Below are positions 1-14,033 of a stretch of DNA of 64,000 bases, piece after piece. Origin of the DNA: Escherichia phage vB_EcoM_SP13. The position numbers were made by a program, and so were the translations under genes. Position 1 is the first letter of the stretch. Every line of letters starts with the position of its first letter. Below the pieces are notes generated by a model that was given only the letters and a program-made list of their open reading frames with translations, did no database searches and was not told the DNA's origin. The stretch lies in sequence record OP352608; one strand, written 5' to 3'.

Positions 1-131
1 ATTTTAAAAACATTTATATTAATTTTTTTCATATCCTCATACTTATGTTAATTTATATATTTAACGTATCATCCGTAAGATATAAGTAAAAACAAAGACT
101 TGCGGCAATACGGATGATACGTCATGATACG
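1..131. repeat. AT-rich tract (1-60) followed by a perfect 14-bp inverted repeat ACGTATCATCCGTA, built from the same ATCCGTATC unit as the iteron locus near 16.1 kb
   Basis: Read directly: 64-77 acgtatcatccgta and 109-122 tacggatgatacgt (exact reverse complement); 1-60 is strongly A+T rich. Confidence 0.6.
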
Positions 132-360
132 CTTCAACCAGCCAGCAGCGGCTAAGTCGTTGATTTGCATAACAAGCGGCAAAAGGGATGGATTTCTTTT
201 ATACGTATCAAACAGTACACCACGCACCACGGTCCGTTATCCATTCAGCAATATGATTTGTGTACGTTTATAGCCATAATGAACATCAATCTGCACTTGA
301 ATATAATGTCCATCCATTGTATAATTCACACTATTAATTTGCACTATGGGATTTTGCACT

Positions 361-834
361 ATGAGTCAAGATTATGTAGCGATGCCTGAAGACTTTGAAG
401 ACCCGCGATTCGCAGAGCACAATCAGGCTTTATTCGATGAGTTCATTGACCTTGTTATTCAGGGTCATGACATGCGCGCAGCTTTTGCACTAGTATTTGG
501 AATGGAAGTTGCAACGGATAACTACACTGGCCAGCGAATCCTTTGCACGCAACGCAATCCATACTACAAGATGCGCTTCAAAAAGCGTATGGAAGAGATG
601 CCACTCAAGGATTTGTGGAGCGTAAAAGGTGCAATTCACAATTTGGTTAAGCTTGTTCGTGATCCAGAAGTCGCGGCGTCAGCCAAGCTTAATGCTATTC
701 GTGAACTGAATATCATCTACGGCATCACGATGATTGATGAAAACGGCAATAGTAAAATGGGCCGTTCCATGGACGATTTCTACAAGGATTTTGGAGAGGC
801 GGCCAAAGAAGGTGAGCAATTCTCCCGCCACTAG
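361..834 (+). CDS. hypothetical protein (about 158 aa)
   Basis: ORF 346..834 trimmed to the ATG at 361; an AATTTGCACTAT box ends on the start codon; no recognisable motif. Confidence 0.6.
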   Translation: MSQDYVAMPEDFEDPRFAEHNQALFDEFIDLVIQGHDMRAAFALVFGMEVATDNYTGQRILCTQRNPYYKMRFKKRMEEMPLKDLWSVKGAIHNLVKLVRDPEVAASAKLNAIRELNIIYGITMIDENGNSKMGRSMDDFYKDFGEAAKEGEQFSRH

Positions 835-948
835 CCAATTTGCACTATAAAACGGCCCTAGAACACATTTTCTCCAATTCTAGGGCCATCGGTAATACGA
901 CGGGGAAGGTTACAAACATAAACGCGTTAGAAAGTGTATTATTATAAG

Positions 949-1212
949 TCATCTTTTAGTCACCTTACGTAACAATTTACGACCTTCAACCGTCCAATCG
1001 AACGACTCCACCAGCAGATTCGCACTATAACCTAAGACGATGCGTCCCTTCTCGTTATCGACCCGCCAACAAGTCTCGAATAGCATTCGATTTGCACTAT
1101 TAACTATTGCCGCAACTCGCGTAGGATAAGCGCAATTTGAACTATGGTCGTAAAGGGATAAGGTGCGACCACTTCCGATGGACAACGTAGCGATGAGAAT
1201 GAGCGTATTCAT
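949..1212 (-). CDS. hypothetical small protein (coding status uncertain)
   Basis: 87-aa ORF with GGTGG RBS, but three AATTTGCACTAT-type boxes lie inside it on the opposite strand. Confidence 0.3.
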   Translation of the reverse strand: MNTLILIATLSIGSGRTLSLYDHSSNCAYPTRVAAIVNSANRMLFETCWRVDNEKGRIVLGYSANLLVESFDWTVEGRKLLRKVTKR

Positions 1213-1262
1213 AAGCCACCAATTTGCACTATGAAAAGCGACCCCGAAGGGCCGCCATTCGA

Positions 1263-1889
1263 TTAGATAATCTGGAAGGTATAGGATTTGTTGCCGAACT
1301 CAAAGTTCAAGCGCCCAGCTTCCTTAAGCTTCATGCGGAAGCGAATGTGCTTGCTATCCGGCAAGCCCAGCACGGCGAACGCTACGCGGACCGATTTGAA
1401 CTCGCCTACACCCTCGACCATAACGCCGTTACGGGTGAGACGCTTTTGCGCCACTTCCTTATTATCCCAACTTTTTGCAATACCTTCGCTATTCGAACGG
1501 CGATGGGAAGGAGTTCCATTTTGCACTACGCAATTTGCACTATCGTTTAGACCGCTCTTAACGAAGGCTTCATACTCTTCGTCGGTCATCGCGTCGAGTT
1601 CTTCCTGGGTCGGCTCGGCCTTTTTAACGACCGCACGCGCCTTATGCGTTTTTACATCGCTGGACACTTCCTCGCGCGACTTCGCTTCGGGGATGGGCGA
1701 TTCGTTGGACGGCTCATCGAGCGCGTTTAAGGACTCGATTAACGCGATTACGCGAGTCTCGGCGGTACGGCGGTCCGCAAATTTCTTAATCGGCTTCGAA
1801 CCGGAATTTGCATTATAAAATGCAACGAGGTCGGCGGTCTTAGTTGCGATAACGTCGCCGCTAGTCGAGAAACGATTTAAGCTAACCAT
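1263..1889 (-). CDS. hypothetical protein (208 aa)
   Basis: ORF with AGGAG RBS 7 nt before the ATG; GC-richer codon usage than most of the window; overlapping plus-strand ORFs judged less likely. Confidence 0.55.
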   Translation of the reverse strand: MVSLNRFSTSGDVIATKTADLVAFYNANSGSKPIKKFADRRTAETRVIALIESLNALDEPSNESPIPEAKSREEVSSDVKTHKARAVVKKAEPTQEELDAMTDEEYEAFVKSGLNDSANCVVQNGTPSHRRSNSEGIAKSWDNKEVAQKRLTRNGVMVEGVGEFKSVRVAFAVLGLPDSKHIRFRMKLKEAGRLNFEFGNKSYTFQII

Positions 1890-1969
1890 AATGAACTCCT
1901 ATTTGTTAGGGCGCTAGGCGCGAAAGAATTTTATTAAAGCGCCGCGCACGACGCTCTAAAAATCCTCTC

Positions 1970-2254
1970 TTACGCTTCGACGAGGGAGAAGGTCTCAAAT
2001 TCTTCTTCGCCCATAACGAGTAAGATGTTACCGATTTCGACCGCTTCGAAGAAGTATCCGTTAACGTTTACTTCGAAGGCTTCGCGGTCCGATTCCGGTA
2101 ACGCCGCGTAAAGTTTAAAAGCCTCGGCGACCGTTACCCCACCCGCCTCGATGGTCTGGTCTACGTTCGCGGCGTAGACTTCGGATAAAATTTGTTTTAC
2201 GCCGTAGTTCTCGACGATAGCGTTACGGATGGAAGAAACGTTAAGAATAGCCAT
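1970..2254 (-). CDS. small protein, paralog of the 2889..3179 product
   Basis: AGGAG RBS; shares VY-x-NVD-x-IE and VN-x-NG-F-x-E-IG segments with the 2889..3179 protein; preceded by promoter cassette copy A. Confidence 0.7.
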   Translation of the reverse strand: MAILNVSSIRNAIVENYGVKQILSEVYAANVDQTIEAGGVTVAEAFKLYAALPESDREAFEVNVNGYFFEAVEIGNILLVMGEEEFETFSLVEA

Positions 2255-2322
2255 TTTAAACTCCTAGTTGGGAGAGGCGTTAACGACCTATTCGCTAACT
2301 CATCCCGTCCCGATATGAGTAC

Positions 2323-2350
2323 ATTATAATATAGTGTAGAAAAAAGTAAA
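2323..2350 (-). promoter_or_regulatory. sigma70-like promoter (cassette copy A) for gene 1970..2254
   Basis: On minus strand: -35 TTTACT, 16-nt spacer, -10 TATAAT, then the conserved leader ATATCGGGACGGGATGAGTTAGCGAATAGGTCG shared with copies B and C. Confidence 0.55.
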
Positions 2351-2394
2351 GCACTTTTTCGATAAAAATGCGATAAATTATTTTATCTTTTTTC

Positions 2395-2422
2395 TTTACT
2401 TCTTCGTACACTCGCGTATACT
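2395..2422 (+). promoter_or_regulatory. sigma70-like promoter (cassette copy B) for gene 2479..2781
   Basis: -35 TTTACT (2395-2400), 16-nt spacer containing GTACACT, -10 TATACT (2417-2422), followed by TTGTTTATATCGAGACGGG. Confidence 0.55.
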
Positions 2423-2478
2423 TGTTTATATCGAGACGGGCGATGGCCCTTCCTTCTACTAGCATCGGGAGCTTTATT

Positions 2479-2781
2479 ATGACTACTTTAATCTCTTCCA
2501 TCCTTACTTACGACGAAGACCGTTTAACCGTTCGCTCTCTTATCGCCGCCGTTAACGCCGAACTAGAATCTAGCGCCATTAAGGTCCGCGCGGTTGCCTT
2601 CGTCGGTCTTTCCTTCGACGATATCAAGTACGCCGAACGTAGCGCCATCCGCTTCGCGAAGACCGACGACGAAGCCGTTACCCTTATCGAGACGGTTACT
2701 CCGCGCGGCGAAACGTTAATTATCGTCGAGTATATCGACGTAGAAGGCGATAAGGCTTATAAATATTTTATCGCAAAATAA
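2479..2781 (+). CDS. hypothetical small protein (100 aa)
   Basis: ORF 2422..2781 trimmed to ATG 2479 with GGGAG RBS; no recognisable motif. Confidence 0.65.
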   Translation: MTTLISSILTYDEDRLTVRSLIAAVNAELESSAIKVRAVAFVGLSFDDIKYAERSAIRFAKTDDEAVTLIETVTPRGETLIIVEYIDVEGDKAYKYFIAK

Positions 2782-2792
2782 CGAAAAAGTGC

Positions 2793-2821
2793 TTTACTTC
2801 TTAGTACACTAAGACTATAAT
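2793..2821 (+). promoter_or_regulatory. sigma70-like promoter (cassette copy C) with structured leader for gene 2889..3179
   Basis: -35 TTTACT (2793-2798), 17-nt spacer containing GTACACT, -10 TATAAT (2816-2821); leader 2837-2869 GGGATGAGGTAGCGAATAGGTCGCTACCCTCCC can form a stem-loop. Confidence 0.6.
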
Positions 2822-2888
2822 GTTTTATATCGAGAGGGGATGAGGTAGCGAATAGGTCGCTACCCTCCCGACTAACTAGGAGAATATT

Positions 2889-3179
2889 ATGATCACTTTA
2901 TCCGCTATCCGTGCCGCTCGCGTCGAAACTTCCGAAAACTCTAACGTATTTGGCGAAACCTTAGAGAGCGTTTATCTCTCTAACGTTGACGCGATTATCG
3001 AGTCTATTTATGAGCCGATCAACTTCCTCGACCTTTACAAGTATCGCGATGAGGACATCGTGTCCTACCGCGTAACGATTAACGGCTTCGTTTATACGAT
3101 TACCGAAATCGGCGGCGAATATCTCGCTGTACCGCAACTCGGCGGCGAAGTAACTTACTTTAAAATCGTAAGCCTTTAA
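2889..3179 (+). CDS. small protein, paralog of the 1970..2254 product
   Basis: AGGAGA RBS; paralogy visible in the translation. Confidence 0.75.
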   Translation: MITLSAIRAARVETSENSNVFGETLESVYLSNVDAIIESIYEPINFLDLYKYRDEDIVSYRVTINGFVYTITEIGGEYLAVPQLGGEVTYFKIVSL

Positions 3180-3190
3180 GGAGAAGAAAA

Positions 3191-3400
3191 ATGATTAATA
3201 TGAATAACTCTCTTAACGCGCGCGCCCATCGCACCGCCGTCATCGATATGTTCCGTGAGCTTAAGGACTTATGCGATAATATGAACGCGATGTTATCCAT
3301 CGGCGGCTGGGGATACGAAGAAGAAGTTAAATATGCGGTTATGCGTCGCCGTCGCGATAACGTCCTTGGGCAAATTAAACGCGCCGGATTATTCCTTTAA
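3191..3400 (+). CDS. hypothetical small protein (69 aa)
   Basis: AAGGAGAAG RBS; followed by a terminator. Confidence 0.65.
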   Translation: MINMNNSLNARAHRTAVIDMFRELKDLCDNMNAMLSIGGWGYEEEVKYAVMRRRRDNVLGQIKRAGLFL

Positions 3401-3426
3401 TTATAATCAACCACCGTTACTAATAG

Positions 3427-3451
3427 GCCGCGCTTAGTCGCGGCTTTTCTT
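3427..3451 (+). terminator. rho-independent terminator
   Basis: GCCGCG-cttagt-CGCGGC hairpin followed by TTTTCTT. Confidence 0.7.
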
Positions 3452-3570
3452 CGTCCCTATCTCGGTGCGCTCCTACGCGAAAACTCCTTTATCCTTCCCT
3501 TCGTCGTCGCATAATCTTCGTCGATATGCGCCTTAGTTCGCATAACAGGTATTACGTTAAATGGAGAACA

Positions 3571-3832
3571 TCGCGTAAGTCCTTGTTTTATATAGACACC
3601 TATATCGGACCGTTAGGGCGGGTCGCGTAAGTCGTTGTTTTATAAAGGCGCAAAACTTTCCCTTCGTTCCGAACTAAAACGAGGAATATGCCGACCCTTC
3701 GTCCGAAAATAGTACGCATGCGAAATTACATGCATCTAGAATAATCCCCACAGATATTATCCTACACGCAATCATTCGCTTTCGAATCATTATGCTTCAT
3801 ATTATTATGCGTCGAATCATTCGCTTTCGAAT
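3571..3832. repeat. Direct repeats in a roughly 700-bp non-coding stretch
   Basis: TCGCGTAAGTC(C/G)TTGTTTTATA at 3571-3592 and 3623-3644; AATCATTCGCTTTCGAAT at 3770-3787 and 3815-3832; no convincing ORF or tRNA cloverleaf found by eye. Confidence 0.5.
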
Positions 3833-3909
3833 TGTAACGCTGGAAACTGTAACGGCGATTGATTATTGCGTTCGTGTGGTTTTTATGGCATGGGTCTTTT
3901 TGGTGCGTT

Positions 3910-3938
3910 TTGCTACTTGATGGAATTTGCGGTACACT
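3910..3938 (+). promoter_or_regulatory. promoter-like element (-35 TTGCTA, 17 nt, -10 TACACT)
   Basis: Hexamers and spacing read directly; contains AATTTGCGGTACACT, related to the AATTTGCACTAT boxes; points into a minus-strand gene block. Confidence 0.35.
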
Positions 3939-4006
3939 AATCAAAATACGACACATTTAGTCTACTAACTTTTCAAAGAAAAAGTCCTGGACAGTACCGT
4001 ACTATT

Positions 4007-4035
4007 TTGTACCCACAGGAAATTTGCAGTACACT
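4007..4035 (+). promoter_or_regulatory. promoter-like element (-35 TTGTAC, 17 nt, -10 TACACT)
   Basis: Read directly; contains AATTTGCAGTACACT; followed by a short GC hairpin CCTGC-gcgcg-GCAGG at 4036-4050. Confidence 0.35.
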
Positions 4036-4115
4036 CCTGCGCGCGGCAGGCAAAATAAAGGGCCGCACCAAGCGACCCACGATTCACGATTCACGGTTAA
4101 AGCAACATCCACCCA

Positions 4116-4496
4116 CTATTCACTCTTATGGGCATCACCAAATCCATCAGCAATCTGGCTGATCAACGACTCAATGGACACAGTTTTACCAATTGATCGA
4201 GCGGTTATGGCGAGCATATTATCAATCAAACCATGATTGACACAATACTCTGGAGATTTAGAATCATCTTCAGAACAACCAAAAAGCTGGTCGCGCAGAC
4301 TTTCAAGAGAACGCTCAATATTTTCCAACTTCTCTTCTAAATCGGATTGGCGACGTAAAACCCATGTTAAGTCTCGGTTGCCGACTTCCAACCCATCAGA
4401 ATAGCAAGGTGGAGCGTCAATTTTGATGCTGGAACCAAAAGCAGTGCCGCTGCCTTTAGTATAAGTATGGCTCATAGAATCATTTTTATTTGACAT
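4116..4496 (-). CDS. hypothetical protein (about 126 aa)
   Basis: ORF 4116..4562 trimmed to the ATG with AAAGGT RBS. Confidence 0.55.
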   Translation of the reverse strand: MSNKNDSMSHTYTKGSGTAFGSSIKIDAPPCYSDGLEVGNRDLTWVLRRQSDLEEKLENIERSLESLRDQLFGCSEDDSKSPEYCVNHGLIDNMLAITARSIGKTVSIESLISQIADGFGDAHKSE

Positions 4497-4593
4497 ATCA
4501 TTACCTTTAATATTTGGGTGATTAACAATAACTATAATAAAGCCGCATAGCGCGGCATTCAAATCGATTTATTAATTGTGACGATTGGATTCA

Positions 4594-4788
4594 TCAATCG
4601 ATACCAACTGAGCCGATGTGCTGAAAGAACTCTGAATAAACTTCCTTCCAGTACTTACGCGCTGCTTTCTGGGCTTGTCCTTTGCGCTTGAAGCTTTTGC
4701 CTTGAAAGATGAAACGGTCGCTTGTCGCGCGATACTCCACCACACCTTCCAGCCATTGTAAGAATGCTACTGATTCATTTTTATTCAT
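4594..4788 (-). CDS. hypothetical small basic protein (64 aa)
   Basis: GAGGT RBS. Confidence 0.55.
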   Translation of the reverse strand: MNKNESVAFLQWLEGVVEYRATSDRFIFQGKSFKRKGQAQKAARKYWKEVYSEFFQHIGSVGID

Positions 4789-4795
4789 TTCAACC

Positions 4796-5194
4796 TCAAT
4801 ATTTTAATAAGAAAGCACCCAACCAACTTTCCTCAACCTCGCGGCCAGTAGCCACACGGTCGGTCTTGGCTATGGGTCTGGATTCGCCGCAGGGCAACCC
4901 GTCTTGTAGTTGTGTACTATTGCCAATTCTCACCAGAACCTTTCCATCAGGGTCGATATAAGCGCGACAACCCATGATTTCGAGTCGTTGTAGACACTGG
5001 CGAATCGTTTTCAGCTTCTCACCGGACCGGATAGAGCGCGGTCGCGACCGCTGACCGTTCTTATTTACTGTACGCTTGAAGACCGGAATATCATTGGTGC
5101 GTTGCGGCTTGGGTCGGTAGTAGGCTTCTTCGCCAGGAGTCGCACCTGGCGTCAATTCGCGCTTGAGCGCCTTTTCAATATCAATGATCATAAT
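4796..5194 (-). CDS. hypothetical basic protein, possibly nucleic-acid binding
   Basis: ORF trimmed to MIIDIEK start, which overlaps the stop of the upstream peptide gene (TAATG); Arg/Lys-rich centre. Confidence 0.5.
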   Translation of the reverse strand: MMIIDIEKALKRELTPGATPGEEAYYRPKPQRTNDIPVFKRTVNKNGQRSRPRSIRSGEKLKTIRQCLQRLEIMGCRAYIDPDGKVLVRIGNSTQLQDGLPCGESRPIAKTDRVATGREVEESWLGAFLLKY

Positions 5195-5292
5195 TATGCC
5201 GCAGCAGCGTGAATTATTGCGTAAACAATTCCTAACAGGGCGACAACGCAAACAGTGCCCCAAAATGCAAAGCGTCGTGCCTCTTTATCCAT
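5194..5292 (-). CDS. 32-aa single-pass membrane peptide
   Basis: MDKEARRFAFWGTVCVVALLGIVYAIIHAAAA; start overlaps the stop of gene 5285..5572 and stop overlaps the start of gene 4796..5194 (translational coupling). Confidence 0.4.
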   Translation of the reverse strand: MDKEARRFAFWGTVCVVALLGIVYAIIHAAAA

Positions 5293-5572
5293 TGTCCACC
5301 GCCCCAATATCCATGAAATTAAAAACCAATTTCGCCATTTCATCTTGTGAAATGACATTATAGTGCTTAGGCAAATCGCTTTCTGATAATACCTTCTGGG
5401 CTTCTTCTTTTGTCTCAAAGAGAGGGATGCACCAGTTTACTGCTTCACCAGATTCATTACTGTCTACTTGCTTTAAAAAGACCAAGCGGTTATCTTCAGG
5501 ATCAATGCCGCAGATGACGTATTTTGGCAATGCTTTTGCTTTTTGAGTCTTATCAATATCTTCAAATTTCAT
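5285..5572 (-). CDS. hypothetical protein (95 aa)
   Basis: ORF trimmed to MKFEDID with GAGGTG RBS. Confidence 0.6.
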   Translation of the reverse strand: MKFEDIDKTQKAKALPKYVICGIDPEDNRLVFLKQVDSNESGEAVNWCIPLFETKEEAQKVLSESDLPKHYNVISQDEMAKLVFNFMDIGAVDNG

Positions 5573-5653
5573 AATACACCTCACTTGTTAACGTATAATG
5601 AGTATAACTTAATAGCGCATAAAGTAAAGGCGCTTTTCAGCGCCTTGAGTGAA

Positions 5654-7963
5654 TTATTTTGCTGATTTCAGCGCGGCTATCTCTGCCTTGAGTTCACCTA
5701 TCTGATCCATGAGTGCAAGAATAGCCTCGTGGTGCAATGCCGCTGCCACTCCGTAAGTGTCGACTGATTTGACATCCTTGACCACGGTCCCATCAGCCAG
5801 TTCCATATCACCTGAAACAGAAACGGCTTCTGGGAAATCAACCTCAACATCTTGAGCCACGAATCCAAAACCTACTTTCGCGCCGTCAGTTTTCAATCGC
5901 CATGACACGCCATTAATCCTTTTCATCTTGGTCAATGGGTCTTGAATCTTGACAATCTCATCCTTGATTCTGACGTCTGAAGAAGTACCCCAACCGCCAG
6001 CGCAAACAGCATTACCTGCTTGCAGGAATTGGAAATACTTGTTGGTGCCTACACCGCCAGCAGTAGTGGTCATTATGGTCACATCGCCATTACGCTCAGA
6101 ATATACCCGACCATACGTTGCTGTGTTGGCACTGTTCTTAAAATCGATGAACGATTGGTTGTTGGTGTTTCCAATGAACGTCGCTTGACCGCCGCGAGTT
6201 ATCAACTGGCCTTTTGCATCAACGTTCCCAGAGCTGGTGATCAAGTTATTTGGCACAAGCAAGTTGCCGTTGTCGACAAAATCGAATGCCTGGCTGGCGG
6301 CAGTCGTCAAATTGGTAACGGTCAATCGCATGTAATAAGCGCCACCGATAACAGCGCGAATGCGCATGCGACCTTCAGCCTCAACAGCAGTCCCCACTCG
6401 ATACTCCGACATGACGCTGCCGCCGTCAGCGGTCGTGCCTGGACCTGGCATTGCCGTATCGCCGTTTATAACAGACCATTGCGTATTCGCCGCTGTGAAT
6501 CCACCGGATGCACGAATCACCCAAACGCCTGAAAAGTTGCGCGGCAATACTTCATCTGTTGCAAGGTTGTTACGACCGTAAGCTGGGCTTGAGTTAGAAG
6601 CTCTTAGCGCAACGCTTCCCAAAGAGTTCGCACCAGAACTTAAAAGCGAAACACCTCTTACATATCGCGGAATGGTGAATCCTTCTCCATTGATGAATGC
6701 GCCGCCAGCACCTGCGACAACCGTTCCTGATGCTGGTTCACTTGCAGGGCCGGACCCGTGGAAGTTGATGTTGCCAGTGATGTTTGGCAGGAAGGATTCC
6801 ATTATCATTCCGTCATTTGACGAGTTGCCGCCATCGCCACGGGCAAAAAGTGCACGAACACTTCCTGTCTGAACGCCGTTACGGTCTGGAACACGGAATG
6901 TTGTTGTTCCGTTGCCTAAAGAATACTTTCCGCGCTTCAGCGGGTCAGCCAACCAATCTGCATCAGCAATAGGCGTAAGCATTTGCGCATAAGCCCAAAG
7001 CTCAGGCCAGTCTGCACGGTTAAGCAATTGTCCGTCGGCAACAACTTCATACGACTGAATATAGGCGCGACTGTCGCGCAGGTGAAAGTCACCAACGCCA
7101 TAGTTCATTACGCCGTTCATGCTTGGGCCAACGGTGCCAGTATTTACTAAGTTCTCAACCCAACGCTTCGTCGCGGCATCATAATCATTGACGGGGTCGC
7201 CAGCCAGTGGTGTTGAGCCTTGTGGACGAATATTCAACCATGCTTGCGCATTGTCTGCTGATCCTGTGCCGCCCATGGAAGTTGGAACGATGCTCTGATC
7301 AGCAACAGGGCCAAATCCAAAGGCATCTTTCATTCCCTGAATAGTCGTTTGACCTGTGCCGCCGTTTGCAATTGGAATTGTGCTTTGTGAACTATAAATT
7401 TGCGCCCAAGGCGACCATGAAGATGTTTCAGCATTGTACCTTCTTTGGTACAAGTTATTTGAGTTGAATGTGGTGTATCTTTGAATGCAACTTTCCAAAG
7501 ATATGGCAGTCTGCAGGACTTCCAATATCCCAGCTTCCAAGGCTACTGGATAGTTGAGGGATGTCTGCGCAGCAGCATTTGAATATTGGTAATATTGCCC
7601 AAACCAAGTTCCAGTCAAAGAGTTCAGATTTATCCCCGACGGCAAAAGTCCAAAATTCCTGACAGTATTGGTCAAAGATGCGGCAGTTGTTCGAATGGAA
7701 AGCATGTCGCCTGCCGCCCATGCGCGCGCTGCAGTTCCTTCCTGTGCACGCTGCACAGTCAGGACGTTCCCAACCACGGCTGTTACAGTGATGATTTCAA
7801 ATTGGAGGCCTGTTGCAGCGTCGACGATTGTCGCCACTACACGCTCGTTTGCACCCAAGGTCGGAAAGCCCGACCCTGAGCGGATTGTGATTGTGGTGTC
7901 TGAAGTCGTCGCTGGCTGAGCGAGCGCGACCTCAAAGTTGTTTTTGAATATTAGCCTTGGCAT
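5654..7963 (-). CDS. tail fibre/tailspike protein with C-terminal self-cleaving intramolecular chaperone domain (peptidase S74-like)
   Basis: N-terminal TITIRSGSGF...VTAVVGNVLTVQRAQEGT fibre-anchor-like segment; Gly/Ser/Thr-rich repetitive body; C-terminal GGWGTSSDVRIKDEI ... FGFVAQDVE ... LKAEIAALK pattern as in endosialidase-type chaperone domains; CGAGGA RBS. Confidence 0.75.
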   Translation of the reverse strand: MPRLIFKNNFEVALAQPATTSDTTITIRSGSGFPTLGANERVVATIVDAATGLQFEIITVTAVVGNVLTVQRAQEGTAARAWAAGDMLSIRTTAASLTNTVRNFGLLPSGINLNSLTGTWFGQYYQYSNAAAQTSLNYPVALEAGILEVLQTAISLESCIQRYTTFNSNNLYQRRYNAETSSWSPWAQIYSSQSTIPIANGGTGQTTIQGMKDAFGFGPVADQSIVPTSMGGTGSADNAQAWLNIRPQGSTPLAGDPVNDYDAATKRWVENLVNTGTVGPSMNGVMNYGVGDFHLRDSRAYIQSYEVVADGQLLNRADWPELWAYAQMLTPIADADWLADPLKRGKYSLGNGTTTFRVPDRNGVQTGSVRALFARGDGGNSSNDGMIMESFLPNITGNINFHGSGPASEPASGTVVAGAGGAFINGEGFTIPRYVRGVSLLSSGANSLGSVALRASNSSPAYGRNNLATDEVLPRNFSGVWVIRASGGFTAANTQWSVINGDTAMPGPGTTADGGSVMSEYRVGTAVEAEGRMRIRAVIGGAYYMRLTVTNLTTAASQAFDFVDNGNLLVPNNLITSSGNVDAKGQLITRGGQATFIGNTNNQSFIDFKNSANTATYGRVYSERNGDVTIMTTTAGGVGTNKYFQFLQAGNAVCAGGWGTSSDVRIKDEIVKIQDPLTKMKRINGVSWRLKTDGAKVGFGFVAQDVEVDFPEAVSVSGDMELADGTVVKDVKSVDTYGVAAALHHEAILALMDQIGELKAEIAALKSAK

Positions 7964-8001
7964 TTTACGGTCCTCGTTTTGTCGACAACCGTATTATAAC
8001 C

Positions 8002-8343
8002 TTAATTTCTTTTGAGAGGAATATGACGGTGGCTGCCATTATTTGGTTTAATAATGAGCATAAAAACGATTAGAAAGATGATGGCTGATATACTTAATTC
8101 AATCAGCGCGGCTTGAGATATAGATTGATCTTCGTGATACTGCTTTTGCATTTCTGCTTTCTTCTGAGCGCAAACTTCAGGTGATATGTAATCGCCTTTT
8201 GAGTTGCCATAATAAATTTCGCCGTTTTCAGAAATCAGTCTGCCGCAAATATCCGTTTCAGCCTTTGCACTTGACATCATAATAACGGTGCCGATAATAG
8301 CGGCGATAGTCCAGATTAACAGTTGTGATAAAGTGTTGTTCAT
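8002..8343 (-). CDS. membrane or exported protein (signal-peptide-like N-terminus and C-terminal transmembrane helix)
   Basis: ORF trimmed to MNNTLSQ with AAGAGG RBS; hydrophobic LLIWTIAAIIGTVIMMSSAKA and ISAIIFLIVFMLII segments. Confidence 0.55.
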   Translation of the reverse strand: MNNTLSQLLIWTIAAIIGTVIMMSSAKAETDICGRLISENGEIYYGNSKGDYISPEVCAQKKAEMQKQYHEDQSISQAALIELSISAIIFLIVFMLIIKPNNGSHRHIPLKRN

Positions 8344-8539
8344 GATAACCTCTTTAAATTCCCTTCCCATATCGGGAAGGGTGATAATTATTTTACGCGA
8401 AAGAATAGGCGCGTGCCACACAGCGAGTCCCAACGGCCTTCACCATCCCATACCGACCCAACGCCAGCGGTGATGACACCAGCAGAATTGGCGGCATTGG
8501 CCCAGGCGAGTCGTTTCAGCTTCCAACTACACCAACGAT

Positions 8540-8773
8540 TCACAGTTCATCTCCAGATTGCAGAACAAGTCCCGCATAGAGGATTGCCAAGGCCAAAGGT
8601 GCACCACCACCAGCCTCTCTATTCTCTTTGATTTGAAGAGTATCCTTAAGGAATTGCAGCTGAACGTTGAATTCACTTTCAATTCCAAGCACTCTAGCCA
8701 ATTCTTTTACAGAATCTGCATATGCCTTGTCTAGCACTTCTTTTGGTACTGTTAAGGTTAATTCATTTGCCAT
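8540..8773 (-). CDS. hypothetical small protein
   Basis: ATG overlapping the upstream stop; GGAGTGG RBS. Confidence 0.5.
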   Translation of the reverse strand: MANELTLTVPKEVLDKAYADSVKELARVLGIESEFNVQLQFLKDTLQIKENREAGGGAPLALAILYAGLVLQSGDEL

Positions 8774-8984
8774 TTTCTTTCCACTCCACAAATGTGTTGC
8801 CGCTTGTTTCTCTGTTTAGCAGGTATCTGCCGCGCATCCCATGAAGGCTGAACTCAACCGTCGATGGATTAGATTTTGAAAGCCATATAGGCTGCCCGTC
8901 GAATGGACCGCCTACGCATGTATATTTCGCTTTTGGCTCACTCCTTTTGGGCCGTTTTGCCCGCTCTTTGATTGATAGTCTCAT
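8763..8984 (-). CDS. hypothetical small basic protein
   Basis: ATG overlaps the stop of gene 8984..9199 (ATGA). Confidence 0.5.
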   Translation of the reverse strand: MRLSIKERAKRPKRSEPKAKYTCVGGPFDGQPIWLSKSNPSTVEFSLHGMRGRYLLNRETSGNTFVEWKENGK

Positions 8985-9199
8985 CAGTCTTCACCTTGAG
9001 ATTCCAGACAAGTAAGGACAAGCCAAGTCATCGGAAGAATCAAAACCAGAGAAATGAGGGACCAGATAGACCAGCACAGGATGACAGACTTGAATGTGTG
9101 AACGTCGCCAAACGCAGCAGTAAAACAGAATCCCATTACAAATGCAATAGCGGTGGAATGGTTGTCTATGGCTTTGATGGCACGGTCGATGAGTTTCAT
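8984..9199 (-). CDS. small membrane protein with holin-like topology
   Basis: GGAGGT RBS; 71 aa with two or three hydrophobic helices; no adjacent lysin, so a holin role is speculative. Confidence 0.5.
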   Translation of the reverse strand: MKLIDRAIKAIDNHSTAIAFVMGFCFTAAFGDVHTFKSVILCWSIWSLISLVLILPMTWLVLTCLESQGED

Positions 9200-9348
9200 A
9201 TTACCTCCGGTTTTGAGTTAATATGATTATAACGCAGAGTCTCAGAAAGGCAAACTTTTTGTGAATTTTAATCAAAAAAAATGGCCAGAAAAAAATCTGG
9301 CCGAAAGATCACCCTTTATCCACTACTAAGCTGGAATCATAATTTTAC

Positions 9349-9378
9349 TTGATATAGCTTGTACAAGCAAACTATAAT
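9349..9378 (+). promoter_or_regulatory. promoter-like element upstream of the terminase gene
   Basis: -35 TTGATA, 18-nt spacer, -10 TATAAT abutting the ATG at 9379, which would favour the in-frame ATG at 9412 as the real start. Confidence 0.4.
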
Positions 9379-10839
9379 ATGAATAAAATATTAACACATA
9401 ATTGGAAATTCATGTACCAGTTGAATCCTGCTTTAAAAGAAGTCTGGAAGACAAAAGCGCGATACAAAGTAATATACGGCGGTCGTGCATCTTCCAAATC
9501 GCACGATGCCGCTGGTTTTGCTATTTATTTGGCGGCAAACTTCAAATTAAAATTCCTTTGCGTTCGACAATTCCAGAACAAAATTTCTGAATCTGTATAT
9601 ACTCTATTAAAAGACAAAATAGAGATTTCTGATTTCAAAGATGAGTTCAATTTATTAAAGAACTCTATTGAACATAAAAGAACTAAATCTGAATTTCTAT
9701 TTTACGGTATCGCACGTAACGTTGATGAAATTAAATCAACAGAAGGTGTTGACGTCCTTTGGCTGGAAGAAGCGCACGCGCTTACTGAAGAACAGTGGGA
9801 CATTATTGAGCCGACAATCCGTAAAGAAGGGTCCGAAATATGGATCATCTTTAACCCCGATGAAGAGGCCGATTTTGTCTACCAAAACTTTGTTATGCGA
9901 CCGCCGAAGAATGCCATTGTTAAAAAGATAAACTGGCAAGACAATCCATTTTTGTCGCAAACGATGCTGGACGTTATTGCAGGCATGTACGAGCGCGACC
10001 CGAAAAAGGCAGAGCACGTTTATGGCGGCGTGCCGAAGACTGGCGGCGATAAATCTGTAATCAACCGCGCATTCGTTAAGGCCGCGCTTAATCTCCACAA
10101 ACACCCTACGCTGGGATGGAGTTTGTCAGGGTCTAACCGTATAGGCTTTGACGTAGCGGACGATGGCGACGACCTTAACGCCACTGCATTCGTTACAGGA
10201 AACGTATTGCGCGGCATCAAGACATGGGAAGGTCTGGAAGATGAATTGTTAAAATCGGCAAGCGGAGTTTGGAAAGATGCGCTTACATTTGGCGCTTCTA
10301 TAACTTATGACGCCATCGGTGTCGGCGCTTTTGCTGGTTCAAAATTTGATGAACTGAACGAGTATGCAATACATGAAAATCCATCATTTCCAAGAATCGA
10401 ATTTAATGCGTTCAATGCGCAAGGGTCTGTTGATGATCCTGATGACGTTTTTCTTGAATTACCACACGTTGAAATACTCAATAAAGACCATTTCGCAAAC
10501 ATAAAAGCGCAAAAGTGGACTGAAATTGCAGAGAGATTCAGAAAGACATACGAATATGCAACTGGGCAAGCCGTATATCCGACTGATGAGTTGATTTCAA
10601 TCGACACCGATGGCATACCAGAACTTGGAATTCCAGCTTGGACTACTGAAGAGATTGAGACGTTTCTTTTTGAGATGTCAGCGCCGCGCAAAGATACGTC
10701 TGTTCTTGGCAAGTTCAAAGTTGAATCTAAAAAGGATATGGCAAAGCGTGGAGTCAAATCACCTAACAAAGCGGACGCGGCAATCATGGCATTAATGAAA
10801 CCAATCGTTGCAGCATCCGGCTTCTTCTCTAACCTTTAA
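9379..10839 (+). CDS. terminase large subunit
   Basis: N-terminal deviant P-loop RYKVIYGGRASSKSH typical of large terminases, acidic nuclease-type C-terminal half, position upstream of the portal; alternative start at 9412. Confidence 0.85.
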   Translation: MNKILTHNWKFMYQLNPALKEVWKTKARYKVIYGGRASSKSHDAAGFAIYLAANFKLKFLCVRQFQNKISESVYTLLKDKIEISDFKDEFNLLKNSIEHKRTKSEFLFYGIARNVDEIKSTEGVDVLWLEEAHALTEEQWDIIEPTIRKEGSEIWIIFNPDEEADFVYQNFVMRPPKNAIVKKINWQDNPFLSQTMLDVIAGMYERDPKKAEHVYGGVPKTGGDKSVINRAFVKAALNLHKHPTLGWSLSGSNRIGFDVADDGDDLNATAFVTGNVLRGIKTWEGLEDELLKSASGVWKDALTFGASITYDAIGVGAFAGSKFDELNEYAIHENPSFPRIEFNAFNAQGSVDDPDDVFLELPHVEILNKDHFANIKAQKWTEIAERFRKTYEYATGQAVYPTDELISIDTDGIPELGIPAWTTEEIETFLFEMSAPRKDTSVLGKFKVESKKDMAKRGVKSPNKADAAIMALMKPIVAASGFFSNL

Positions 10840-10842
10840 CAA

Positions 10843-11082
10843 TCAAAGCATTCCGTGCTGAAGGTCTAGTTTTCTTGCAGCAAATGACCTGGCACGGAAT
10901 CGCTTACCCGCCCTTACTGCCTGCCGAATCTTCTTTTGCATACACTTACGGTCAAAATCGTTGCGGTCAACGGCTTCGAGTAAATCCCGACGCAAAGCAC
11001 CTAGTGTCGCCTTTTCGGATAATTCTACGCCCAGCGCGGCTGCAACGTCTTTCAAAACATCGAGTTCGGTTAACGTTCTCAT
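10843..11082 (-). CDS. hypothetical small protein with basic C-terminus
   Basis: 79-aa ORF on the opposite strand between terminase and portal. Confidence 0.45.
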   Translation of the reverse strand: MRTLTELDVLKDVAAALGVELSEKATLGALRRDLLEAVDRNDFDRKCMQKKIRQAVRAGKRFRARSFAARKLDLQHGML

Positions 11083-11495
11083 TTGATAATCCCCTTGATG
11101 TCTGATTCTGCCATAAAGATTGGAGTGCCGCCGCCAGGAACAATCGAGCGCGTTACTTTGTCGAACATATCGTTTTCTTCAACTTGAATACGATAAAATT
11201 TATTCTTGGATGAAGATGGGCACAATTCCATAAATTTACCAATGCCGCGAACGCATTCATCTTCAAAGTATACTGTTTCACCTTGAATGGATTCGATGTT
11301 TTCAACCGGATACACCTTGCGACCTAAAAGCCATTCATCCATGGTCGCCTGCAACACGCTTCTCGCATCCAAAATCCAAGGGTCAACTGTGGCACCTTCA
11401 TATCGCGCAGCAGTGGCTTTTGCCAGCTCTTCATATTCGCATACGTTTACTACTTCGCCTTGATGAAGGACGACAAATACAATTGTTGTGCTCAT
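11079..11495 (-). CDS. hypothetical protein (138 aa)
   Basis: ORF on the opposite strand between terminase and portal; 4-nt overlap with the downstream gene. Confidence 0.5.
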   Translation of the reverse strand: MSTTIVFVVLHQGEVVNVCEYEELAKATAARYEGATVDPWILDARSVLQATMDEWLLGRKVYPVENIESIQGETVYFEDECVRGIGKFMELCPSSSKNKFYRIQVEENDMFDKVTRSIVPGGGTPIFMAESDIKGIIK

Positions 11496-11590
11496 TTCAA
11501 TCTCCTTTCGTTTGGTTAACTAAAATATAACTCAAAATGATACAAAAGCAAAATATTTTATGAACTATTTATGATTACTATACATATCAT

Positions 11591-11619
11591 TTGCTTACAA
11601 ACACATGAATATTTATAAT
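11591..11619 (+). promoter_or_regulatory. sigma70-like promoter upstream of the portal gene
   Basis: -35 TTGCTT, 17-nt spacer, -10 TATAAT in an AT-rich divergent intergenic region. Confidence 0.5.
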
Positions 11620-11657
11620 ATAGATTGATTCCCTTTCACTGTCAGGTGGCGTTAACA

Positions 11658-14033
11658 ATGAAAATTCTTGGCATAAAACTCTGGGAGAAGACGCGACCAG
11701 AAGCCGAACCAGCGGAGATGCCGCCAGGCGACCCATTGGCACCGTTTGAACGCCTTGAAAGGCGCGGCAGCGGTCAACGCTGGGAAAAGACTGAAAGCAA
11801 TCGACCGACCTTTAAAACGGTTGATGACTTCCCTTTATATGAGCCTGATATTAACGGGGACGGTGTTGCAATCATCAAAGGTCGCTCAGTAGATTCAGCA
11901 ACCGTATCCAAAAAAGTTATGGATAATGCCTTAAAGAACATCAGTTCAGAAGGGCAGGTGAATCCATACACAGTGCCTATTCAGTTGCAAAACTGGTACT
12001 TATCGCAATCATTTATCGGATATCAAGCTTGCGCCATCATCGCGCAGCACTGGCTAGTGAACAAGGCTTGTTCCATGGTAGGCCGCGATGCGGTCCGTAA
12101 AGGCTGGGAAGTCAAATCCAGTTCTGAGTCGGAATTGTCAGTACAGGCCAGCGAACGCTTAAAGCAAATTGATAAAGAATTTAACATCAAAGAGCACTTA
12201 GTTGAAGCCGAACGATTCAAGAATATTTTTGGCATCCGCGTCATCATATTTGATGTGCGCAGTGATGACCCAGAATATTATAGCAAACCTTTTAACATCG
12301 ATGGTGTGACAAAAGGGTCTTATAAGGGAATCATTCAGGTTGACCCTTATTGGATGATGCCATTCTTGACGTCTGAAAACACTGCAGACCCTGCGTCACA
12401 GCATTTCTATGATCCAGAATACTGGGTGATCAGCGGACAGCGTTATCATCGCAGCCACCTAATCATCTTGCGCAACGATGAGCCAGCTGATATTCTCAAG
12501 CCGACTTATATCTACGGCGGCATTCCTCTGACTCAGCAGATTTATGAACGTATCTATGCCGCTGAACGTACCGCTAACGAAGCGCCATTGCTGGCGATGT
12601 CTAAGCGTACAACCACGCTTCGGACCGACGTTGACAAGGCGATTGCCAATGAGCGGTCGTTTGCCGAACGTCTGATGATGTGGATTAAGTACCGCGACAA
12701 CTATGCAGTCAAAGTGCTTGGTCAGAAAGAAGAGATGGACCAGTTCGACATCAACTTGTCAGACTTCGACAGCATCATCATGAACCAGTACCAGCTGGTG
12801 GCCGCAATCGCAAAAGTTCCGTCGACAAAACTGTTAGGGACGTCACCTAAAGGCTTTAACGCCACTGGTGAGTTCGAAATGGTCAGCTATCACGAAGAAT
12901 TGGAGACTTGTCAACAGCACGATTTGACGAAGATTCTTGACCGCCACTATAAAATCCTTTTGAAGTCTGAAGGCGTGGAAGTCGACGTTAAAGTGGCATG
13001 GGAGCCAGTTGGTTCACTTACTGCTACTCAGCTTGCAGAGATTAACGACAAACGAGCGAATACTGGCAAGACTCTCATTGATGCTGGCGTAATCTCCCCT
13101 GATGAAGAGCGCGACCGCATCAAGGACGACAAAAACAGCGGCTACAACCGTTTGCCGGAAGATGCAGCAGAAGAAACCCCAGGGATGTCTCCAGAGAATA
13201 TGGCACTGCTTGGCAAGTCTGCTGGTGAAGTTCTGCAAGGCAAGGCCGATATTGAACAGGCCAAAGCTGATGTTGTCAAGATGGGCGGCCAGTTCTATAG
13301 CGAGACTGGTATTATGCCGGAAGGTGCCGCGCGTGGTGAGTTGGCGGAAAACCCTGACAGGGCACCAGTTGAGATTAACATGGATGATACCGATGACGAA
13401 TCAAGCCATCACGTTGATGTCCTAACGCAACTGAAAGAAGGTCTGGAGGGTATTGCTGACTATTACCTTAAAGAAGGTCAGGACGTGGATTTTGACCCTC
13501 AAAAAGATGCAAGGTCGGTGCAACCGTCTACGCTTCCAAGCGTAAAAGGAAATGTCGTGAACTTGCGACACAATGTAGGGAAGATGGATGCTGCATCGCT
13601 GCCTAAGATGAAGTTGCACGGGATGATTCTTGGTATTGAGAATCCTCGCAACAGCATTCGCAGGGGTAACAGCCTTGATGGTGAATGGGCAGTTAAGATG
13701 CCGCACCATTACGGATTTATCAAAGGCACCAAGGGCGCTGATGGTGATGAAGTCGACTGCTTTGTTGGACCAAACATGAAGTCGCCTAAAGTATTCATCA
13801 TTAACCAAAATGATAATTATTCTGGCGAATTTGATGAACACAAGTGTATGCTTGGATTTGATTCAGCAGAAGAAGCGAAAGAAGCTTATCAGGCGTCATT
13901 TGGTAACGGTTGGAACGGATTTGACTCAATCCACGAATTGGATGTAAACTCATTCAAGGAGTGGTTGAAGGGTGATTGCTCTCAAGCATATGGAGCACTC
14001 AACAATCCTACTAATTCACCGAAGCAAGGTTGA
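11658..14033 (+). CDS. portal protein (with extended C-terminal region)
   Basis: ORF trimmed to ATG 11658 after AGGTGG RBS; size and position between terminase and head-morphogenesis gene; no portal motif verified. Confidence 0.65.
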   Translation: MKILGIKLWEKTRPEAEPAEMPPGDPLAPFERLERRGSGQRWEKTESNRPTFKTVDDFPLYEPDINGDGVAIIKGRSVDSATVSKKVMDNALKNISSEGQVNPYTVPIQLQNWYLSQSFIGYQACAIIAQHWLVNKACSMVGRDAVRKGWEVKSSSESELSVQASERLKQIDKEFNIKEHLVEAERFKNIFGIRVIIFDVRSDDPEYYSKPFNIDGVTKGSYKGIIQVDPYWMMPFLTSENTADPASQHFYDPEYWVISGQRYHRSHLIILRNDEPADILKPTYIYGGIPLTQQIYERIYAAERTANEAPLLAMSKRTTTLRTDVDKAIANERSFAERLMMWIKYRDNYAVKVLGQKEEMDQFDINLSDFDSIIMNQYQLVAAIAKVPSTKLLGTSPKGFNATGEFEMVSYHEELETCQQHDLTKILDRHYKILLKSEGVEVDVKVAWEPVGSLTATQLAEINDKRANTGKTLIDAGVISPDEERDRIKDDKNSGYNRLPEDAAEETPGMSPENMALLGKSAGEVLQGKADIEQAKADVVKMGGQFYSETGIMPEGAARGELAENPDRAPVEINMDDTDDESSHHVDVLTQLKEGLEGIADYYLKEGQDVDFDPQKDARSVQPSTLPSVKGNVVNLRHNVGKMDAASLPKMKLHGMILGIENPRNSIRRGNSLDGEWAVKMPHHYGFIKGTKGADGDEVDCFVGPNMKSPKVFIINQNDNYSGEFDEHKCMLGFDSAEEAKEAYQASFGNGWNGFDSIHELDVNSFKEWLKGDCSQAYGALNNPTNSPKQG

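Follow-up and report, generated by a model that had tools for sequence, protein, structure and literature searches.

The window analysed here is a 64,000 nucleotide stretch of DNA from Escherichia phage vB_EcoM_SP13 (sequence record OP352608). Close to its first position is the small terminase gene, terS, on the plus strand, followed by two genes on the minus strand, the second of which encodes a conserved early protein of 208 amino acids. Across these genes and the gaps between them a 12 bp sequence, referred to here as the box, is repeated in a single orientation. This array of boxes is real, conserved within a clade of phages, strictly one-directional, and tied to terS and to the left end of the direct terminal repeat.

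The first 6 kb of the window are 100% identical to Escherichia phage F13 and 92 to 95% identical to 27 other Wifcevirus records. The Wifcevirus are myoviruses of approximately 68 kb with a direct terminal repeat of approximately 3.7 kb (PMC6563267). Position 1 of the window is position 1 of the Mansfield, WFC, WFH, and Ro157lw records, that is, the physical left end, which places the array in the left third of a direct terminal repeat of approximately 3.9 kb. It starts 288 to 336 bp (about 290 to 340 bp) from the left end as this is set in the Mansfield, WFC, and Kyle records. Positions 1-3673 of Mansfield are annotated by PhageTerm as the direct terminal repeat, and the two ends of the WFC record are identical across 3784 bp. 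The two published estimates of the right boundary are approximately 80 bp apart. A sequence common to the left and right repeat boundaries was sought, with no convincing match.

Matches to the 12-mer AATTTGCACTAT with one mismatch or fewer number eight in the window, where 0.68 are expected, and none of 100 shuffles reached eight. All eight are on the plus strand, from 336 to 1816. The sequence TTGCACTA is present eight times on the plus strand (339-1535), never on the minus strand, and nowhere else in the 64 kb. Likewise, GCACTA occurs nine times on the plus strand and not at all on the minus strand of positions 1-2000, against ten occurrences across both strands of the other 62 kb. A weight matrix was made from 87 sites, all from other lineages. 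At 14 bits or more it identifies nine sites (336, 351, 482, 837, 1017, 1089, 1221, 1518, and 1532), all on the plus strand, and none outside the array on either strand of the window. Lowering the threshold to 11 bits adds 1134 and 1805 to the array, as well as 4021 and two minus strand sites elsewhere. The remaining F13 DNA examined, record positions 1-6552, contains no copy of the box. Six of the 11 boxes are within coding sequence, on either coding strand, and the spacings between boxes are irregular, from 12 to 355 bp, with no phasing.

A family of such boxes had been noticed in an original prediction made from the sequence alone, and much of what was claimed is supported by these results. 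The boxes are on the plus strand whichever strand is coding locally, two tandem pairs are present (offset by 15 bp at 336/351 and by 14 bp at 1518/1532, where 14 to 15 bp had been given), and two boxes do overlap start codons. The ten copies that had been counted become nine strong and two weaker boxes by the matrix, the one at 1805 being a doubtful member, and a weight matrix search, of the kind that had been proposed for the genome, returned strong sites in the window from the array only.

Table. Boxes and other features at the left end of the window. Positions are those of the window unless a locus is named.
Feature	Position	Strand	Remarks
Direct terminal repeat	1..~3900	none	Left boundary at position 1; right boundary at ~3900 (homology to the Mansfield PhageTerm call) or 3981 (WFC record)
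Second repeat family, CGTATCA/TGATACG (ATCCGTA), right half	64..212	both orientations	Family spans the left end of the genome
Two overlapping sigma70-like promoters (TGAACA-16-TATAAT; TTGAAT-17-TATAAT)	280..325	+	Upstream of terS
Box AATTTGCACTAT, 19.7 bits	336..347	+	First member of tandem pair; overlaps in-frame upstream ATG at 346; identical in 13/13 Wifcevirus genomes
Box ATTTTGCACTAT, 18.3 bits	351..362	+	Overlaps the terS start codon, ATG at 361
terS, small terminase	361..834	+	phmmer E=7.2e-34, residues 3-147, to PDB 7UXE; phrog_4783; embedded in array
Box CTTTTGCACTAG, 14.6 bits	482..493	+	In terS (+ gene), codons A-F-A-L-V; identical in 13/13 Wifcevirus genomes
Box AATTTGCACTAT	837..848	+	3 nt past the terS stop; complement of the Chi-like octamer GCTAGTGG before the box at 828-835
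Box GATTCGCACTAT	1017..1028	+	In - gene 949-1212; Chi complement CCACCAGC directly before, 1008-1015; perfect in most sister genomes
Box GATTTGCACTAT	1089..1100	+	In - gene 949-1212
Degenerate box AATTTGAACTAT, 12 bits	1134..1145	+	In - gene 949-1212; perfect in 12/13 sister genomes
Box AATTTGCACTAT	1221..1232	+	In gap between - genes 949-1212 and 1263-1889; identical in 13/13 Wifcevirus genomes
Gene for conserved 208 amino acid early protein	1263..1889	-	Distal edge of array; candidate alternative reader of the boxes
Box ATTTTGCACTAC	1518..1529	+	In - gene 1263-1889; first member of tandem pair; divergent segment instead in 3/13 sister genomes
Box AATTTGCACTAT	1532..1543	+	In - gene 1263-1889; second member of tandem pair
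Weak box AATTTGCATTAT, 12 bits	1805..1816	+	In - gene 1263-1889; poorly conserved, doubtful member
AATTTGCGGTACACTAATCA element, not a box	3924..3943	+	~23 nt beyond the right repeat boundary in Mansfield and Kyle
GAAATTTGCAGTACACT element, second copy	4021..4035	+	Box score 11.8 bits only
Chi-complement arrays	L005 255-1972; L035 3861-5433; L025 323-1824; L027 411-1836; L036-L039 (reverse-complemented); L007 2107-2447	box/terS strand	Left part of the terminal repeat

TerS and the neighbouring 208 amino acid protein led to the corresponding loci of intermediate relatives in public assemblies; some are given here by their L numbers. The array is found in ten lineages, these being Wifcevirus, L024, L025, L026, L027, Kyle, PA1, L036, L038, and L039, and the TerS of the nine box-carrying lineages other than Wifcevirus are 41 to 67% identical. 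On the terS strand each lineage has [TC]GCACTA 6 to 13 times, with either none or one on the other, for a total of 96 against 3. The original argument that clustering and orientation bias signal function is upheld, and the chief indication of function for the array is this conservation across lineages.

The logo of the 96 sites from the ten lineages is R-A-T-Y-Y-G-C-A-C-T-A-Y. From -45 to +54 there is no information outside of the 12 bp box, being confined to -4 to +7. In all of the lineages the array extends from approximately the start of terS to approximately the 3' end of the gene for the 208 amino acid protein. Between lineages the flanking DNA has diverged, the positions of the boxes mostly turn over, and the boxes fall in different reading frames. 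Because the positions are mostly not conserved, it is the number, density, and direction of the boxes that are maintained, rather than particular sites. The box at 482 has counterparts in L024, with a box at the same terS offset, and in Kyle, with CGCACTA at the homologous A-L codons. The codons D-S-H-Y-P-P-A of the Kyle TerS tail form a box that has a Chi complement directly after it. Within Wifcevirus, 23 of 132 positions inside boxes are variable and 209 of 1468 outside, a comparison that is uninformative because the genus is approximately 93% identical, and thus too young, and because the 1518/1532 segment has been replaced in three genomes.

No comparable array was found in Pbunavirus PS44, MyoSmar, XcP1, Maja, or Gekk3-15 by oriented k-mer enrichment, with and without mismatches, or by repeat finding, and the best 6-mers in these five relatives (ATTTCT, TAAATC) have random flanks. 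Those box-carrying phages that have been isolated have Escherichia, Shigella, or Pantoea as hosts, and the box is absent from relatives that grow on Pseudomonas, Xanthomonas, Burkholderia, and Aeromonas. The array was not found mentioned in the Wifcevirus literature searched.

Other repeats are present at the same end of the genome. The left boundary itself sits in an AT-rich palindrome, approximately 300 bp to the left of the array, and is straddled by the CGTATCA/TGATACG family, which has nine copies (window 64-77, 109-131, and 197-212; L002 6324-6511, to the left of the boundary) and none elsewhere in 19 kb. The repeats flanking the end differ by lineage, being CGTATCA/ATCCGTA in Wifcevirus and L024, TATCCGTA in L025 and L027, TTATCCGCAAGA in L038, and ATAACC(GTT) in Kyle, PA1, and L036. 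Every sister lineage has a related version of its own. This end-flanking family is a candidate terminase cut-site or origin element. Kyle, PA1, L025, L027, L036-L039, and MyoSmar have 4 to 9 copies of the Chi complement CCACCAGC on the box strand, where forward Chi is absent. There is no Chi array in Wifcevirus and L024, which have at most one copy, at 1008-1015 in the window. Given the polarity of Chi, this orientation is the one to which RecBCD responds when it enters from the left end.

In addition to the pair upstream of terS, there are sigma70-like promoters at 2350-2323 on the minus strand and at 2395-2422 and 2793-2821 on the plus strand. These three constitute an early divergent pair midway along the repeat. 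From these strong promoters (2323-2422 and 2793-2821) run a leftward operon of 1970-2254, 1263-1889, and 949-1212 and a rightward one of 2479-2781, 2889-3179, and 3191-3400. This suggests an early gene module that is present at both ends of the genome, as early gene modules are in SPO1 and T5. Towards the right boundary, AATCATT/GAATCATTCGCTTTCGAAT repeats fill the final ~150 nt of the terminal repeat in Wifcevirus (window 3754-3841) and in Kyle (L005 3464-3585).

The sites at 3924 and 4021 had originally been described as related versions of the box in promoter-like contexts. Their layout is sigma70-like (TTGCTA or TTGTAC, 17 nt, TACACT). They are not boxes and belong to a separate conserved element, GAAATT..GTACACT(AATCA), that is also found in the Pantoea phages Kyle and PA1. 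Pointing as they do into minus strand genes, the GAAATT..GTACACT elements may be antisense promoters or operators. GTACACT occurs on the plus strand at 2406, 2804, 3932, and 4029 of the window, at 184, 2320, 3636, and 3975 of L005, and at 6689, 7674, and 8135 of L035; it lies in the spacers of the two strong early promoters, and in the conserved GAAATT..GTACACT pair past the right boundary it makes up the -10-like part.

Many public assemblies have this region as a separate contig of approximately 3.2 to 4.1 kb, L026 for instance being 3983 nt, as is expected of a terminal repeat, which would assemble by itself owing to its doubled coverage. Positions 1-6000 of the window align with 6553-12854 of the F13 record OP745617 in two pieces, 6302 record bases corresponding to 6000 window bases, with an insertion or deletion of approximately 302 bp between the two. 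The end of the window corresponds to approximately position 2068 of F13, so that the window crosses the start of that record. No known RNA families were found in positions 1-4500 at E values up to 0.1, and GC skew, as an origin marker, only follows gene orientation.

The protein to which the terS product is matched, PDB 7UXE, is the decameric small terminase of Pseudomonas phage E217. TerS homologues are encoded by Pantoea phage Kyle (43% identity), by Pbunavirus (~41%), and by phages of Serratia, Xanthomonas, Burkholderia, and Aeromonas. For Wifcevirus, Kylevirus, and Pbunavirus, nearly all records label the gene only as 'hypothetical protein'. Several Pbunavirus records, like those of Wifcevirus and Kyle, have terS at 360 to 620 bp from the left end when coordinates start at the physical end.

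The natural reading of the boxes, and very probably the correct one, is that they are protein-binding signals for the handling of the left DNA end, a small share of the probability being left for some other role or for none. The array may, tentatively, be a directional platform for packaging, similar to cosB or pac and read by TerS, a proposal that we favour while considering it more probably wrong than right in this specific form. In lambda the order is cosN-cosB-Nu1, and the pac sites of P22, SPP1, and Sf6 are in or beside terS. The array is likewise beside the physical end where packaging cuts, and in and next to terS; this layout of end, sites, and terS mirrors that of lambda and favours TerS. 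The boxes would be a directional cis-acting array of binding sites, marking the end of the terminal repeat nearest to terS across that gene and the next 1 to 1.4 kb. Rings of E217-type TerS, encoded inside the array, would load onto the same-direction boxes at the concatemer junction. Once loaded, they would set the direction of the terminase and place it for the cut by which the left end is made. A ring of identical helix-turn-helix units should favour direct repeats (PMC9611059, a review of TerS). The residues immediately ahead of NPYY, a conserved TerS motif, are [QKR]-R in 10 of the 10 box-carrying lineages (Q64 and R65 in the window protein) and E-[SFA] or D-A in the five box-less relatives, and this polar or basic pair in every box-carrying TerS is counted in favour of TerS as the reader.

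Several observations weigh against TerS in this role. The TerS of Pbunavirus, MyoSmar, XcP1, Maja, and Gekk3-15 is of the same family, yet these five genera have no comparable array, and the TerS of Kyle is about as near to that of Pbunavirus (41.8%) as to that of Wifcevirus (43%). The box is invariant and the putative TerS recognition helix after G35 is variable (MRAAFALVF, MASCMRLTF, VNVAFKMVF, ETTALRVVF). Thus the boxes neither co-occur nor co-vary with the TerS family, as the sites of a terminase would. At 1.2 to 1.5 kb, with irregular and unphased spacing, the array greatly exceeds known pac or cosB sites in size. In vitro, E217 TerS showed no appreciable DNA binding (PMC9611059). The TATCCGYA-like repeat family that flanks the end is a candidate terminase site at least as good as the boxes. 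Such repeats fit a co-evolving terminase site better, since they differ between lineages.

Among the roles proposed originally for the boxes was that of phage middle or late promoters that lack a -35. Such promoters could, for example, serve rightward transcription from the entering end, and all of the boxes do face rightward from the left end, as T7 early promoters do. In addition, TTTGCACTA resembles the T4 MotA box, TTTGCTTTA, at 7 of 9 positions. However, across the 96 sites of the ten lineages there is no -35, no activator box at -30, no conserved -10, and no partner element at a fixed spacing from -45 to +54; TAnnnT at the MotA distance is found at 6 of the 96 sites, against 9.6 in control windows. 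Approximately a third of the boxes end in C, and their last six bases, CACTAC, are without the T needed at the final position of a -10. More than half of the boxes are inside open reading frames, mostly antisense, and they track neither gene starts nor gene orientation. They are not placed upstream of one temporal class of genes on the same strand, the motif being found nowhere else in the genome, the structural (late) genes included without exception. The large open reading frames encode a DnaE-like polymerase, helicases, a RepB-type primase, and a VapE-like helicase, with no RNA polymerase found, and ordinary sigma70-like promoters already serve the region, including those just upstream of terS. 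The related Pbunavirus 14-1 has sigma70-like promoters and a CTGGG motif (PMC10914365), which is also counted against promoter function. The promoter proposal is therefore rejected as very improbable, on the lack of a partner element, the disregard of the boxes for gene positions, and the lack of an RNA polymerase. A role in replication is improbable to a lesser degree; the boxes could then act as iteron-like sites for loading, or as signals for strand-specific priming, used by the RepB-type primase and the VapE/D5-type helicase as replication moves out of the region of the genome end. Short same-direction repeats are typical of iterons, strand specificity would suit a primase recognition site, and in relatives the genes for this primase and helicase are both directly upstream of the genome end and terS. 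Furthermore, the same 12-mer is present as a 22 to 23 bp iteron in lambda-O/DnaD-like initiator genes of unrelated viral contigs. In Wifcevirus, though, the primase and helicase genes are approximately 9 kb from the array, and box-less relatives carry the same replication genes. The irregular array runs across 1.5 kb of coding DNA, rather than having a regular or phased period beside an AT-rich unwinding element and an initiator gene, and no O-like or DnaD-like initiator homologue was found in the window. The iteron likeness comes from a motif-seeded scan whose matches were mostly coding repeats. Since it was found in this way, and with no initiator homologue here, the identity of the 12-mer with the iterons is only an analogy and probably coincidental. 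Box arrays in unrelated phages were rejected on the same scans of IMG/VR, the more than 120 loci being mostly coding tandem repeats with periods in multiples of 3; other matches are the 22 to 23 bp iterons of O/DnaD-like initiators, which are without a homologue in the window. L080 (7456-7546), L065 (3457-3524), and L118 have 4 to 5 iterons of TGCAnnTTTTGCACTACC with a 22 to 23 bp period, beside an AT-rich stretch in the lambda-O/DnaD-like gene. That gene is followed by a DnaC-like loader, which is the arrangement of a classical origin inside an initiator gene that has the same 12-mer by chance.

Two further readers can be considered in place of TerS. It is conceivable, though unlikely, that the boxes are bound by the 208 amino acid early protein (gp19). 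Expressed from the strong sigma70-like promoter at 2350-2323, it would coat the repeat directionally at the end where terS lies. As such, it could serve as an end-protection complex or a directional roadblock, regulate terS, or be a cofactor of recombination or packaging. Its LPDSKHIRFR helix is invariant in 18 of 18 homologues from the box clade, and a C-terminal helix-helix-wing domain is confidently predicted by modelling. However, the protein also occurs in box-less relatives, and the matches to its modelled fold are not significant. That the C-terminal domain is specific to the box clade had been considered, as BLASTP gave an N-terminal match only; this was rejected, as tblastn and alignment show the domain in box-less relatives. 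Somewhat less probable again is a Chi-like directional signal for a conserved Enterobacterales host translocase, nuclease, or helicase that enters from the left end, the phages accumulating this signal at the place where the end would be processed. The box sequence does not vary across lineages in which the phage proteins and the other repeats have diverged, and its single orientation towards the DNA end, with turnover of positions and retention of density, is what is seen in Chi-like signals of phages with related hosts. In Kyle, PA1, L025, L027, and L036-L039 the boxes are interleaved over 1.2 to 2 kb with 5 to 9 copies of CCACCAGC and no forward Chi. The restriction of the box, among isolated phages, to those of Escherichia, Shigella, and Pantoea also fits a host factor. 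On the other hand, Serratia phage MyoSmar has Chi arrays and no boxes, and RATTTGCACTAY is not known to be recognised by any E. coli factor. To our knowledge, this sequence does not correspond to Chi, KOPS, Ter, dif, a DnaA box, or an element of the sigma54 or MotA type. The further proposal, that RATTTGCACTAY is a second Chi-like signal for a conserved Enterobacterales machine that processes DNA ends or translocates and has so far been tied to no sequence, and that the phages stack it with true Chi at the exposed end, is quite doubtful.

How genome ends are recognised, cut, and duplicated is largely unexplained in myoviruses with kilobase direct terminal repeats, a group that includes the Pbunavirus relatives in wide therapeutic use. 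The E217-type TerS has been solved without a known DNA target, and the array is a conserved, directional candidate signal beside the cut site. Together, the boxes, the lineage-specific repeats flanking the end, and the oriented Chi arrays split the left end of the repeat into modules that can be tested. Wifcevirus genomes have been assembled in vitro and rebooted (PMC11074155), with a published system for vB_Eco4M-7, and recoding or inverting the boxes is therefore feasible. Should a host factor prove to be the reader, a new directional signal of the host would have been identified in the box.

Repeats in and next to direct terminal repeats have been described in other phages, including the SRL and SRR short repeats of T7 and the repeats of the T5 left terminal repeat. 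The array resembles these as a set of short repeats at a terminal repeat with putative roles in concatemer processing or DNA entry, although the sequences, phage groups, and copy layouts all differ and homology is not implied. Replication iterons, such as those of the lambda origin in gene O and the TGCAnnTTTTGCACTACC iterons from IMG/VR, are likewise same-direction repeats inside a gene of the machinery that they may serve. The box array, in contrast, has no regular period and no adjacent initiator homologue, and is spread over several genes. Arrays of Chi (GCTGGTGG) are similar in their orientation towards the end, their invariance, and their retained density, and boxes are interleaved with Chi complements in most of the sister lineages. 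The box sequence is unrelated to Chi, however, and Wifcevirus has the boxes with a single Chi complement in its repeat. Short repeated sites just inside the packaging cut, in or beside terS, are also present in lambda cosB (R1-R3, to which gpNu1 binds) and at pac in SPP1, P1, and P22. Those have 3 to 7 copies over 100 to 300 bp, while the present array has 9 to 13 copies over 1.2 to 1.5 kb, all in one direction and within a long direct terminal repeat. Its site sequence is constant despite variation in TerS, and its binding is putative. With lambda cosB it shares the order of genome end, sites, and terS.

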